Of a stretch of 64,000 bases of DNA, positions 18,634 through 63,166 are shown in pieces. The translations under genes were made by a program, and so were the position numbers. The stretch comes from Eledone cirrhosa. Taxonomy: Eukaryota. Location of the stretch: NCBI GenBank assembly GCA_964016885.1, contig OZ024757.1, positions 16,740,001 to 16,804,000 of the forward strand, written 5' to 3'. Every line of letters starts with the position of its first letter. Position 1 is the first letter of the stretch. The notes under the pieces are model-generated. The model was not told where the DNA came from and searched no databases. It saw only the letters and a list, made by a program, of their open reading frames with translations.

Positions 18634-18648
18634 TGTGTGTGTGTGTGT

Positions 18649-18731
18649 GTTCCGAAGAGATTGTTTTGGTAAAATCAGGAGCAAGCAGGAGAAGTTCTCA
18701 ACAATCGTTGATTTATGTAACATCAGCATGT

Positions 18732-18813
<82 letters not shown>

Positions 18814-19022
18814 AAAAGAAAAAGGTGACGTGGTTGCCTAAACACTGTACGGCGTAATTCGGGCTGTTTGTTTGTTTACAAACAAACAAACCGAGCATTA
18901 TAATAAATGTTCGGTAAACCCATACGTGCATATATATATATATGTGTGCATGTATGTATATATATACATACTGTACGTCTGCATACATATATGTATGTAC
19001 GTATGCATACACACATACTTAC

Positions 19023-19070
<48 letters not shown>

Positions 19071-19152
19071 ACATGCTGATGTTATATAAAACAACGATTG
19101 TTGAGAGATTACTCCTGCTTGCTTCTGATTTTACCAAAACAATCTCTTCGGA

Positions 19153-19155
<3 letters not shown>
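18649..19155. repeat. Diverged ~90-bp inverted pair (18649-18735 / 19066-19155) around a fragment of the 424-bp family
   Basis: ttccgaagagattgttttggtaaaatcag... and its reverse complement; 18872-19010 matches 59595-59730. Confidence 0.8.
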
Positions 19156-19242
<87 letters not shown>

Positions 19243-28694: not shown

Positions 28695-29107
28695 ACATAT
28701 AATGTTATCGCTCTACATGGCTAAATAATCTGAGTTTTTCGAATATTAATAATAATATTCAATTCGTTTGCTAACAGTCTCATTAAGCTATGTCAGTAGA
28801 ATGACCTCGTCATTCTTGCTCTTGTGTTGGCATATAAACAGAACGGCAGACACTAATGTTTCTGGGTGATTCCCCTTCATCAGTACCGTATACTGCTTAC
28901 CTGCCAACTGTCAGAGCTAGTAAAAATATATATTTTCTGAAATATACAGTGACTGATTGGCCTGATTTGCATATTAGCAGACTGGGTGGTCAGTCAGATC
29001 CTCATATTAGCATATCCACTGATCAGCCAGATTTGCATATCAGCAGATAGGCCAGTTATACGAACGATTAATGGCCGGCTTTGCCATATTCAAATAACTA
29101 ACAAATA

Positions 29108-48592: not shown

Positions 48593-49432
48593 CAGGGTGC
48601 GGACGATATTTGTTCGCAAGATTACTGTCTAGGAAAAATTACTATAGTTTTACTTTTTAAAATATATTAATCAAACTTGGCTCAGTTTGTCTTCATGATT
48701 TGTTCTTTCGATCTCACTCGATAAACCGGCCATTGGCTTTGATGACGGCCTCAAGGCGGCCTCGGAACCGGCTACAGGCCTTCATCACTCTCCCCCGGCT
48801 TAGGCCCCTAAAGACACTTGTGATCCTGGCCTTCAGATCGTCTTTCGTATTGCAGCTAGATCTGTTGGTGTCTCGTTCCACTGCGCCCCACACAAAGAAG
48901 TCGAGGGAGTTGCAGTCAGGCGAGCTGGGAGGCCAGATGTCAGGTGAAGTGTGGTCGACGAAGTTCTCTGACAGCCAGGCTTGGGTCTTTCGGCTGGTAT
49001 GGCAGGGCGCTGAGTCTTGCTGCCACACGTATGGCCCACCTGCAGCTACTTGGTCGATCCAGGGCTTTACTATCTCGCTCAGAACGCGGATGTAGCCATC
49101 GGTGTTCAGCTTGAGGCCCTCAGGGAAGAAGTGAGGTGGCATGACGTCACCTTGACTGCTGATGACACCTAAGACCAATGTTGTCGCTGGAAACTTTGTC
49201 TGCATGGCTCTAGGCACGTCTTTGGATGAGACAGCGAGCCACTTGTTGTTCTGGGAGGTGATCTTCTGGTCTTGGCAGAAGTTTTTTCTCGTCGGAGAAA
49301 AACCACAGCATGTCTGGCTCCAGTGGGTGTTTCAACTTGTTGATCAGCTTCTTTGCGTGCTTCAGTCGCTTTTCTTGCATCGCCTTTGACAGAAATTGTC
49401 CTTTCTTCATCTTGTATGAAACGTAGCGAATG
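48593..49432 (-). mobile_element. maT (DD37D) IS630-Tc1-mariner transposon remnant; frameshifted transposase pseudogene
   Basis: WFFSDEK (49210-49410) plus QQDSAPCH...WPPSSPDCNSLD (48714-49217), with 37 residues between the 2nd and 3rd D; TA-CAGGGTG terminus at 48591. Confidence 0.9.
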
Positions 49433-54986: not shown

Positions 54987-55477
54987 TTAACACAAATCAA
55001 TATATTTGATAAACACAAATATCCTCATATTTATGTTTGTATTGTAAATGACCAAGTTAGCTAGATAGAAATATACTAATAATAATATTACAGTTTGCCT
55101 ATCATGACTTAAGATAATACATCATAAATCAACAAAAACAAATTGTATTGGCAATGGCCGTGGTGCTTGGACAAATTTAAGTTTCAAAATCAAACCTGTT
55201 CCGTAGACAGGTTTAAACCTTAAAATCCAAATATGTTTCGAATAATGAAAAAGTGGAAGAAAATACCGCATTTTGATTTCCTCAGCAAGCACTATAAAAA
55301 TTGGTATGTTCCACTTCAAAATATTTAGGAAGACTGTTTAGCGCACGAGGTAACCTCATGCGGTTATCCAGTGTCTAGTTAGCCTCATACTCGTGCTGCT
55401 AGAAATTGGTTCCTTTACCGGTTTCGCAGTTCTTGTGCTTTTCAAAAGTAGAATTGAAATGGAGGGTTTGTGGTTTT

Positions 55478-58440: not shown

Positions 58441-59060
58441 GACACACACACACAAAGAGAGACAGATAGAGACAGAAAGAAAGATTTGCCTAAATAAAGT
58501 ATACATTTAAAGTATATGTGTGTACGTGTGTGTGTGTGAGTGTGTGTATGTGTGTGTGTCTGTGATAGTGTATGTATGTGAGTGTGTGTGAGTGTGTAGT
58601 GAGAGTATGTGTATGTGCGGGTGAGTGAGTGTGTGTGTGTGTGTGTGTGTCTACATGTGTTTCCACACTAAAAATGATGAAACCAGCCGCATTTCCGTAT
58701 TCCTCTCTTTTTCTCTTCACTCTCTTGTTGTTTGGTGTCAACATATTTAGTGTTCTTTCAAATTCAGATACCTCGGCTTTCATTCTTCTATGGGGGCTCT
58801 ATTTCTAGGTGTGTGTGTGTATTTGTATGTGTGTATTTGTATGTGTGTATGGATGTGTGTATTTGCATGTGTGTATGGATGTGTGTATTTGTATGTGTGT
58901 ATTTGTATGTTCGTGTGGGTGTGTATATTTGTGTGTGTATGTATGTGTGTGTGTGTGTATTATTGTTTGTGTATGTCTGCCAGAAAGAGATACTAGCGAA
59001 CTGTTTAACATTTTAACATGCGTGTGTATTAGAATAAAAGAGCGCGGCGTAGATAGATAG

Positions 59061-59122
<62 letters not shown>

Positions 59123-59140
59123 CTATCTATCTACGCCGCG

Positions 59141-59792
59141 AAAAGGATAAACGGAAAAAATGAAACGAAATTTCATTTCCCACTCTTAGTACGGCTGTTA
59201 CTTAAATATAAGTATGTACACGTACATACATATATGTATACAGACGTACAGTAGTATGTATATATATATACATACATGCACACATATATATATGTACGTA
59301 TGGATTCACCGAACATTTATTATAATGCTCGGTGTGTTTGGGAAATGAAATTTCGTTTCATTTTTTCCGTTTATCCTTTTCGGTGCACCCGGCCGATTAA
59401 CCCACTCGATATGCAAATTGGGCTACTCAGCCGTTAATATGCATAAGGTAAGTATTTACGTTCAACAATCTGGCAGGAAGGTATACACGTTGCTGACGAT
59501 AGCTAATAAGCTTGAAACTAGTACAGCGTTCCTTTGTCAGTGTTGAACAAACGAGCAACGATGGTTGCTAGACACTACGGCTTAATACGAGATGTTTGTT
59601 TACAAACACACCGGGCATTATAATAAATGTTCGGTGAATCCATACGTACATATATATATATGTGTGCATGTATGTATATATATATACATACTACTGTACG
59701 TCTGTATACATATATGTATGTACGTATACATACTTATATTTAAGTAACAGCCGTACTAAGAGTGGGAAATGAAATTTCGTTTCATTTTTTCC

Positions 59793-59798
<6 letters not shown>
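59141..59798 (+). mobile_element. 424-bp terminally redundant hammerhead monomer (59341-59798) preceded by a 200-bp inverted arm
   Basis: 59341-59374 equals 59765-59798; 59141-59340 is the reverse complement of the monomer end, reading on into the monomer start. Confidence 0.85.
59487..59529 (+). ncRNA. Type I hammerhead ribozyme, near-canonical minimal form
   Basis: acgttg CTGACGA t agct-aata-agct t GAAAC TA GTA cagcgt; stem III is the palindrome ACTAGT and the cleavage triplet is GUA. Confidence 0.85.
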
Positions 59799-59834
<36 letters not shown>

Positions 59835-60885
59835 TAATAAAATAATGAATAAACAAAGAAACAGTTCCTTATATTTAAAAAAATTCATCATTTTACGATC
59901 GTTTCTAGGATATATATGTGTTAGAGTTGGTATGCATATTCTATAGATCTATGTACAGTATTTATACAAACTATCAGAGGGAATATACATACCTACACAT
60001 ATATATGCTGTCTTCAGAAATAATGATATTTGTTTATTGAAAAAAACAAAGATTCAATACAATAGGTCTGTTTGGGAACAGGTTTTGAATTGACCAATCA
60101 GGAGATAATATATATATATTTAACAAAAACACCATGTTTTTTAATCATTCTGACGACTGAAAACAGATACATCTGCTTTCAAGAAACCACTGGTAAATGA
60201 AATAATTATCTTATGTTGTTTATTACATAACTAATACGCTCTGTAGCCTACATAGAGCACTCTTTTTCCCTGTACCTTTCCGACGGAAATACTTCATTCA
60301 CACACACACACATATATTTATATATATATATATATATATATTTAGAGAGAGAGAGAGAAAGAGGGGAGAGAGAGACAAAGATATATATATATATATGTGT
60401 GTGTGTGGGTGTGTGTATATATATAATATATATGATGATGATGACTACATTTGATAAAGTTATCCCTTCGCATCAATCTCACCCCCCCCCCCCCCATCAG
60501 CCACCACTACCACCACCAACCCTAACACCACCACCATCACCGCCCCATCATCACTACACCCAACCCTAATACCACCACTACCACCATCACCACCACCCCA
60601 TACTGTTTCAATCAAACGACGCCGCAACATTCAATTGGTTTCTCCACTAAACCTTTCCCGTGGTTATGTCTTTCATCTTCAATACATTGATCACTTCAAA
60701 TATAAAATCTACCGAAATTGCTGTTAAATTTCACTTCACACATACAACTAACTATAAACCTGTCTTCCACACTCATCTCTATTAACATTTGTTGTTATGT
60801 TAGAAGGCCGTTTACATATTCATCCGCTCATCACAAGTGTCACTGATTCTAATTGCTTGTGTGTGTGTATCTATCTATCTATCTA

Positions 60886-61250: not shown

Positions 61251-61330
61251 ACTAATTTTACATACACACATATTTATACATACAATATATACACACGCAC
61301 ACACACACACACATTAACCCTTAGCCCAGC

Positions 61331-63166
61331 ATGTTTGCGCTATACCAGCTAATGCCGTTACCAAAGTCCAGATATGCTCTGCTTCTCTTTCTTGTCACCA
61401 TCTATAGTAATAATGAGCCGTGTCATTCTGATATCTTTTTCGGAAGAAGACCCCGGCTACACCAAAGAAGGAGCTATATTAGATGTGAACCCATTACCGT
61501 AAGAATGTGTAAAGGAATGCCTTACAACACTACTGGATTCCCGAATTTTGTTCACGATCAGAACCAAGAAAGTGCCAAGAGAGGTTTAAACCAATTTTTA
61601 ATGTTAATCGATTCAAGATGTTCCCTCTATAGCCGATTTTTCCTTTGTCTTCTTTATACACCTGTATGTAATGAGAAATTCCACCTTATTTTGCCTCCCT
61701 GCCAACAAGTCTGTACGCGTGTTCAAGAAGATTGTGAAAACATGATGAATTCTTTCGGATACAAATGGCCGAAGTTTCTTAATTGCCGAAGATTTCCTTC
61801 TTCGGGACTCTGCGCCAGTCCAGATATCAAAGATCGACAGGAAACCTATTCATATTCTTCTGTGTCAGACAAAACTACATCTATACCGGAAACTACCATG
61901 TCACCGGAAACTACCCCGTCACAGAAAACTACCATGTCACCGGAAACTACCCCGTCACCGGAAACTACCCCGTCACAGGAAACGACTCCGCCTCCGATAG
62001 CTTTGCTTGAGACCACCACTAGCATCAACAACACCAATACGACCGAAGAATTATATTGTATCCCAGGACTAAGTGTATCGGCTAAACTGAATTATAAATT
62101 GGTCATCGGTAATGCCATTATCCCTAACTGCGCAGCGCCATGCGTTGGTATGATTTTCACAGAAGATCAGGTACAGTTTTCTCGACTATTTAACGGTATT
62201 TTATCGTCTCTCAGCCTCGTTCCCTGTCTCTTAATTACTCTCACATTTCTCGTCGATGTTAAACGTTTCCAATATCCACAACGAGTCGTTGTCTTCCAGT
62301 CTTGTTGCTACACAATCATTTCACTGACTTATTACTTAGCTTTCGTCTATCGAGATAAGATTGCCTGTGTTGAAGTTTCCAATCTCCGTTGCCCTCCTCA
62401 AATTATATCTGTTATCACACAAGGAAGAACAACAGTACTTTGTACTATGACGTCTATCTTAATATATTTCTTTAGCATGGCTGCTTCGGTATGGTCTGTA
62501 ATATTTGCGATGGTATGGTTCCTCGCTGCCACGAAGAAATGGTGTTCGGAGGCTATCGAATCGAAATATCTTTATTACCATACAATATCGTGGGGCATGT
62601 CTGCTGTAAAGACGTCATTTTTATTAACATATGGCTACATTGATGGAGATATTTTAAGTGGTGTATGTAACGCTGGTGCATTCAATACAGATGTCCTCAC
62701 ATATTTAGTCCTACTACCATTCGGTCTATATTTTCTCACCAGAATCCTATTTCTTGTCCCAGCTTTCATATCAATGATCAGAATCACCGCCAGAAACGAT
62801 GTACTGTGCACAAGGACTCAACAGACCTCTTACTTAATGTACCGTTTCGGGTTTTTCTCTATCGTCTCCACAATTCACGCTCTAATCGCCATCAGTACTT
62901 TGCTGTATGAGTACAGCTTCAGAGACCTCTGGTTGACAACTTGGTGGGACTCTCGTCTCAACACCAACACCACCACTGACCAGGACGCTCCACCGACCCC
63001 AGCTGCCGCTCTTAGATTGGATTACCATCCCAGCTTGGTACTGTTTATCTTCAGATATGCCGTGGTATATACTAATGCCCTTCTTCCTGCTGTTTGGTTA
63101 TGGAACAATAAAACTTGGCTCACCTGGAAGAAGATAGGGCGTGACATTCTTCGAATCTACCGTTGA
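61331..63166 (+). CDS. fzd: Frizzled-family Wnt receptor, single exon, divergent (611 aa)
   Basis: Hydrophobic signal peptide; 10-Cys CRD ([35 protein letters not shown]); 7TM motifs RFQYPQR, WFLAA..KW..EAIE and DGDILSGVC; KTxxxW motif (KTWLTW). Confidence 0.93.

Follow-up and report, generated by a model that had tools for sequence, protein, structure and literature searches.

Copying of DNA beside a break, before the break is closed, is known from end joining and from retrotransposition. In snap-back SD-MMEJ, inverted primer repeats at a break allow short synthesis that yields a longer inverted repeat, and the ends are then joined through newly formed microhomology; TA/AT is listed as one of the primers used most often (PMC5728401). 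At L1 insertions, an inverted duplication of the flank has been found on the reciprocal end, where a self-annealed 3′ end primes synthesis, in one case from 2 bp of TA/AT; the two examples come from human cells and a tumour (10.1101/2024.12.14.628481). L1 templated insertions number 22 in a set of 3,598 (10.1101/2024.08.27.596794). Penelope-like elements are known for inverted copies, a tail and a preference for TA (PMC8557442), and in vitro a PLE protein cleaves and extends both strands, starting at two RNA sites (PMC11167929).

The locus described here, which we call the index locus, resembles snap-back SD-MMEJ (PMC5728401), since it has an inverted primer repeat at (TA)30 with 19-nt arms. 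That system was described for engineered breaks with short inserts, whereas the index locus has a retroelement partner and a microsatellite primer. Compared with the L1 inverted duplications, our cases involve a long (TA)n primer, a Penelope-type retrozyme and an inherited genome, with copies of 18–324 nt at approximately 5% of the sampled loci. As in the R2 snap-backs (PMC11371274) and the L1 templated insertions (10.1101/2024.08.27.596794), extra synthesis templated by nearby DNA would have preceded closure of the junction; in those cases, however, the 3′ end of the cDNA serves as the primer, whereas the target end is more likely to have been the primer at the index locus.

The window, a stretch of 64,000 nt of the Eledone cirrhosa genome (GCA_964016885.1, contig OZ024757.1, positions 16,740,001 to 16,804,000), contains the following features.

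59043..59062, plus strand: left genomic flank serving as template arm, single-copy DNA by exact genome search
59062..59121, no strand: (TA)30 tract, within which the fold-back would have turned (script, hairpin fold)
59121..59140, minus strand: inverted copy of the left flank, 0/20 mismatches, its last 2 nt (CG) common to the element (script, genome search)
59139..59340, minus strand: inverted arm of the element, monomer positions 467 down to 264, starting 8 nt beyond the usual 459
59340..59798, plus strand: direct arm, made up of a full 424-nt monomer and a further 35 nt, with its end at 459, the commonest 3′ end of the family
59487..59529, plus strand: minimal type I hammerhead motif, read by pairing, within the direct arm
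59796..59831, no strand: (TA)18 tract at the canonical 3′ end of the element, with the right flank next
18638..19165, no strand: further case within the window, with inverted arms of 97 nt that match at 92 positions and consist of single-copy DNA

The order at the index locus is thus left flank, (TA)30, inverted flank copy and retrozyme sequence. The arms (59043–59062 and 59121–59140) are perfect reverse complements by sequence and script, and 19 of the 20 nt in each lie beyond the TA run; a perfect 19-nt complement is expected by chance at approximately 3e-13 per site, given the local composition. The hairpin fold scored z = -13.4 against 200 shuffles, with the TA run itself contributing much of this score. 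In the 3.0-Gb genome, the 20-mer has two exact matches, both at the index locus, indicating that the arm was copied locally from single-copy DNA and does not come from a repeat consensus, and 58640–59130 matched no other sampled locus. Among the (TA)8+ tracts of the window, the script scan found a non-simple inverted pair immediately outside the tract at 59062–59121 alone; the direct-repeat listing of the window was dominated by microsatellites. Because the reverse strand of the element begins at 59139, the CG at 59139–59140 is common to the flank copy and the element, although a 2-nt microhomology is within chance expectation. The first-pass annotation had described a flank, a (TA)n tract and the inverted flank, followed by the element with cg microhomology, and the perfect arms and the CG bear this out. 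The possibility it raised, that the 20-mer belongs to the element consensus, is excluded by the two genome matches. It had also placed a hammerhead element at the junction. The element does adjoin the copy, but the adjoining part is the inverted arm, and the hammerhead core lies approximately 350 nt further on. The index locus is a scar without sign of function.

The retrozyme monomer is 424 nt long (59340–59763). Its 36-nt core has 5150 exact matches in the genome, and tandem arrays of the unit occur at three sampled loci (L002, L016 and L017; L numbers denote such loci throughout). The direct and inverted arms at the index locus overlap by 1 nt and differ by two transitions (2/196) and a 2-nt indel. 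The hammerhead consists of a 6-bp stem I, CUGACGA, a 4-bp stem II, GAAA and a 2-bp stem III, with a cut predicted after GUA at 59523; stem I pairs at 6/6 positions in the commonest form of the monomer, as counted from overlapping alignments. An Rfam scan of the window gave 0 matches at the gathering score, hammerhead included, and free RNA folding did not recover the hammerhead (z 0.08). No open frame of at least 230 aa was found in the window’s element. The hammerhead motif, a monomer within 150–450 bp, tandem plus dispersed copies and the lack of coding of at least 230 aa place the family among non-LTR retrozymes; the 424-nt monomer, type I hammerhead and tandem arrangement are like those of metazoan non-LTR retrozymes (PMC7229834, 10.64898/2026.07.22.740005). 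With its single hammerhead, the index locus falls short of the two-unit definition of an “active” retrozyme (10.64898/2026.07.22.740005).

Loose matches to the CUGAnGA...GAAAC core also lie outside the retrozyme family, at 11191–11215 (-), 15520–15544, 16409–16433, 28858–28883 (-), 33360–33388 (-), 49159–49194, 55235–55285 (-) and 60150–60187, and some of these may be due to chance. A 613-aa open frame at 61325–63163 (+), approximately 1.5 kb downstream of the insertion, matches Fz (Pfam E 8e-30) and Frizzled (E 7e-76).

The ends of the family are those of a Penelope-type element. In a sample of 185 clusters with both flanks in view, 122 of the 3′ ends fall exactly at 459 and 85 exactly at 403; 58 clusters pair one 403 end with one 459 end, and 98 show two outward 3′ ends. 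Canonical ends abut TA in 192/229 cases, as opposed to only 25/87 and 14/54 for non-canonical ends. The right arm of the index element is canonical, and its left arm starts off-site by 8 nt, at the CG of the flank copy. The insertions show the (TA)n target preference, the inverted 5′-truncated copy and the two-site tail of Penelope-like elements, and the inverted arrangement, TA targets and two starts of the retrozyme are shared with published cases (PMC8557442, PMC11167929), except that its start sites are 56 nt apart and the published spacing is 30–40. Flank copies in inverted orientation are absent from the covered parts of the retrozyme and Penelope accounts (PMC7229834, 10.64898/2026.07.22.740005, PMC8557442, PMC11167929). 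Two frames, L093:7360–9192 (-) and L076:5858–7528 (-), gave weak matches below the Pfam cut-offs to GIY-YIG (E 0.0012) and RVT_1 (E 0.0006), respectively, and are candidate Penelope-like coding copies. No autonomous partner was linked to the retrozyme family among eight candidate frames from the sampled loci.

We favor, with a probability of roughly 0.58, the reading that the index copy arose by snap-back at a cut TA tract, extension into the flank, pairing of CG with the element RNA and priming of the second cDNA. A Penelope-type endonuclease would cut both strands within the TA tract, and the right end would prime cDNA at 459. The left 3′ end, self-complementary via its terminal (TA)n, would form a hairpin, and either a host polymerase (e.g. 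Pol theta) or the reverse transcriptase would lengthen it across the tract and along the adjoining flank. Having lost its TA terminus, the left end would then prime at the nearest CG (466–467) rather than at 403, and the two cDNAs would be joined via one shared base. Positions 460–467 are contiguous with 264–459 on the RNA or on a tandem copy, but not on the direct arm of the index element, suggesting that separate priming of a cDNA is the best account of the left arm. The off-site start at 467 fits a remodelled primer, no longer ending in TA, that landed on RNA.

Similar copies recur elsewhere in the genome. After inspection, 9 of 184 other retrozyme clusters had an inverted flank copy, 27–130 nt in length: L005 (two events), L018, L019, L066, L082, L095, L142, L159 and window 18638–19165. 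The arms of the last enclose (TA)34, an older retrozyme-family fragment (18831–19010) and (TA)21, with (TG)n mirrored as (CA)n; here the element sits in the loop of the fold-back. Four of the copies (L095, L142, L066 and the first of the two at L005) run directly into a non-canonical element end; the bases shared at the joins include TTCA at L142 and AATTT at L005. Such joins make up 4/140 non-canonical ends, against approximately 0.7–1.4 expected if scars arose independently of insertions, an expectation that is itself rough (P 0.006–0.054). Inverted copies were also found beside different repeat families (L106, L067, L231 and L121) and between two TA tracts where no element was recognised (L080, L210, L093, L256 and L261). 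The arm at L159 has two exact matches genome-wide, both at its own locus, and that at L142 matched its twin and four partial sequences at 83–84%; the arm is local.

Several loci have a more complex structure. At L005:333–760, there are two serial fold-backs: a 27-nt flank copy is joined to a 25-nt scrap of the element 3′ end, and a 69-nt copy from the second fold-back runs into the 25-nt scrap and continues as the inverted arm of the element. At the left junction of L018 (1100–1200 / 1860–1910), 28 nt of the right flank have been copied in direct orientation, and this copy folds back on itself for 10 nt before a TA run and the element. A fold-back copy is followed by an 11-nt unit repeated four times at L121:440–570, and by a second full copy and TA-rich repeats at L261:3270–4500; these slippage-like repeats suggest iterative synthesis. 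At L093:3552–4292, inverted arms identical at 324/324 positions surround a mirrored compound microsatellite bounded by (TA)26, and are either very recent or an assembly error. Within the window, 6870–7620 contains five near-palindromic units of approximately 55 nt with mirrored (CA)n-(TA)n-(TG)n spacers and a period of approximately 120 nt; two unit variants alternate, and the array looks like the product of repeated fold-back or rolling copying.

The scanned DNA amounted to 1.89 Mb after 17 duplicate or overlapping loci were dropped, and 1.0 Mb of this was sampled at even intervals in 100 windows of 10 kb, most of them on the four largest chromosomes. In the strict scan, inverted non-simple arms flanked 15/2336 (TA)8+ tracts, 0/432 CA/TG tracts and 0/205 GA/CT tracts. 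The loose scan, in which interrupted tracts were allowed, gave 23/1070 TA blocks versus 3/268 blocks without (TA)8, and two of these three have (TA)6–7 at the centre. Mismatched flank pairs served as the null: they gave 15/11669 in the strict scan, all of which on inspection were repeat-family ends or low-complexity DNA, and 8/5075 in the loose scan, five of them between repeat ends. Excluded from the counts were L010, whose arms belong to a family at 57–58 loci, L147 and L250 (low complexity), and L088 and L094 (related repeat ends). The evenly spaced windows yielded 3/1076 tracts in the strict scan and 7/505 TA blocks (approximately 1%) in the loose scan. After inspection they contain 5 solid to 8 possible cases per Mb, all centred on TA, L247 and L221 entering only the upper count of 8. 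The 95% range for 5 cases is 1.6–11.7 per Mb, which corresponds roughly to 5,000–35,000 inverted copies genome-wide if the sampled windows are representative. The proposal that the scar is a fold-back footprint at self-complementary TA targets is supported in that such scars recur, are centred on TA and are found at 0/637 CA or GA tracts; the contrast of TA with CA plus GA is itself borderline (p=0.05–0.08 strict, 0.02–0.10 loose).

The link to element insertion is less firm. Scars occur both with and without the hammerhead element, the two classes that the first-pass annotation had set against each other, and the excess at the retrozyme is 1.6–5-fold and borderline, p ranging from 0.03 to 0.46 by counting mode (4/360 vs 3/1076, p=0.07; 5/361 vs 3/1076, p=0.03; 4/360 vs 9/1829, p=0.25). 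Counted by element end, the frequency was 9/368 (2.4%) against 5–8/505 background TA blocks (p=0.11–0.46), with element ends inspected more closely than the background. The divergence of the arms showed no significant correlation with that of the elements (rho 0.33, p=0.36, n=10). Many background tracts may be targets of other Penelope-type families, so that host repair and retroelement action are inseparable here. The direct runs of copy into non-canonical ends (4/140) are a better sign of coupling than the enrichment. Thus, of the claimed snap-back followed by a template switch, the snap-back is supported by geometry, recurrence and uniqueness, while the tie to element insertion is weakened by element-free scars at approximately 1% of blocks and by the borderline enrichment. 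Folding back is something that broken TA tracts do generally in the Eledone cirrhosa genome, and is not a function of the element.

The index junction could instead be assembled from two events, if an older independent scar gave flank-(TA)n-copy-(TA)m and the element later hit the second tract, its left junction being trimmed into the copy. The proposed origins of such a scar are cruciform cleavage at TA, an abortive cut by the endonuclease of another retroelement and template switching at a replication fork, and human TA repeats are described to break and to be repaired by Pol theta MMEJ (PMC13645644). TA-bounded scars without the retrozyme do exist (L080, L256, L210, L093 and L261), their background frequency (approximately 1% of TA blocks) does not differ much from the 2.4% seen per element end, most non-canonical ends lack TA (25/87 and 14/54 abut it), and at 18638–19165 the element lies within the loop, as if the scar came first. 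Two events would, however, require the trimming to stop within a short arm, and they leave the unusual start at 467 unexplained. Direct copy-element joins are also somewhat commoner than this history predicts, and with 0/20 mismatches in the index arms against 2/196 in the element arms, the copy does not look older than the insertion, within the resolution that 20 nt allow. We therefore consider an older scar unlikely, though it deserves to be kept in view. A single event running in the opposite direction, in which an element-strand 3′ end in CG invades the left flank, copies 19 nt into TA and re-anneals to the TA overhang, would leave an identical product. “Trans” SD-MMEJ junctions (PMC5728401), R2 cDNA snap-backs onto nearby rDNA (PMC11371274) and L1 templated insertions of <250 bp with a source within 15 bp of the site (10.1101/2024.08.27.596794) provide precedents, this direction is the natural reading for the 5′-truncated cases L095, L142 and L082, and L018 has its 28-nt copy of the opposite flank. 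The index junction lies at the start of the inverted arm, however, so the invading second-strand end would come from a cDNA without a target primer and an extra step would be needed, which makes this direction a rather improbable one for the index locus.

An artefact of library preparation, amplification or assembly was also considered. The index arms are identical and form a strong hairpin site that no independent run spans, and the arms at L093 are identical over 324/324 positions. Of the sequencing runs searched, none contained half of the sampled words; one dataset does contain the element family, but its contigs reached neither 59112–59131 nor the left flank, so that it bears on the family and not on the index locus. 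For a chimera, the template would have to be switched twice within 20 nt while the flanks on either side stayed colinear. The two arms of the element itself are not identical (two transitions and an indel). Many other arm pairs have diverged by 2–8% (e.g. 6/115, 6/130, 4/49, 5/97 and 2/95), which argues against chimeras. Pooled over ten element-linked cases, the arm mismatches amount to 25/625 (4%), of the same order as the divergence of element copies (nearest 1–6%, median 4–10%). A tally of arm mismatches with simple-repeat columns included showed no transition bias (12 transitions, 18 transversions). The internal evidence favors real events for the fold-back copies as a class; the index locus alone, with its identical arms, is unproven, and we hold an artefact there to be very improbable. 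Finally, the 20-mer might come from the element consensus or form a terminal inverted repeat in a small DNA transposon; repeat families do account for some of the inverted arms seen at TA tracts (L010, L247 and L221). We rejected this origin on the exact-match search, in which the only copies were the two at the index locus, and other copies of the element continue into different sequence at this point; practically no weight is left to it. The fold-back of a cut TA end, extended on its flank before it primed on the element, is the reading we retain.

The fold-back also copies the tract. Interruptions are mirrored, with (CA)13 facing (TG)10 at L066 and (CT)12 facing (GA)9 at L005, and the blocks of L210 and L231 are symmetric; this shows that copying passes through the tract and doubles its flank-side part. 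Where the fold-back is bounded by TA, two tracts remain. Tracts with a fold-back exceed the others in length, with a median of 23 units against 12 (p=0.009), and at element ends the difference gives p=0.065 once the index locus is left out; this is no proof of growth, because long tracts may fold more often. Hence, the suggested route to TA-tract growth holds as far as part of the tract is duplicated, and the excess in length does not establish it.

The mechanism itself is already known from snap-back SD-MMEJ and L1 inverted duplications, and what is new is its frequency and its TA specificity. The full-text literature searched, in which subscription journals are thinly covered, reports no Penelope or retrozyme insertion with its flank copied in inverted orientation across (TA)n, and no genome-wide frequency of such copies. 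Likewise, the covered parts of the Octopus vulgaris repeat annotation (PMC13282606) and of a paper on R1/R2 junctions (PMC2718515) contain nothing on such copies.

Our reading also provides insights into retrotransposition, as the index locus would record the fate of the second DNA end in a Penelope-type insertion, which was left open in vitro (PMC11167929). A broader version, in which it is routine for Penelope-type (TA)n cutters to turn the cut end back and lengthen it along the flank before or instead of copying RNA, so that the 5,000–35,000 mirror duplications are their work and a main route by which TA and compound microsatellites double and multiply, appears doubtful to us; if true, it would be a retroelement-driven engine of palindrome and microsatellite growth. 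The long TA tracts of Eledone cirrhosa often repair by folding back and copying flank plus tract, and one tract can become two. With 5–8 of them per Mb, these scars would form a frequent kind of small structural change that has gone uncounted, and would add to the growth of microsatellites in invertebrate genomes rich in TA.
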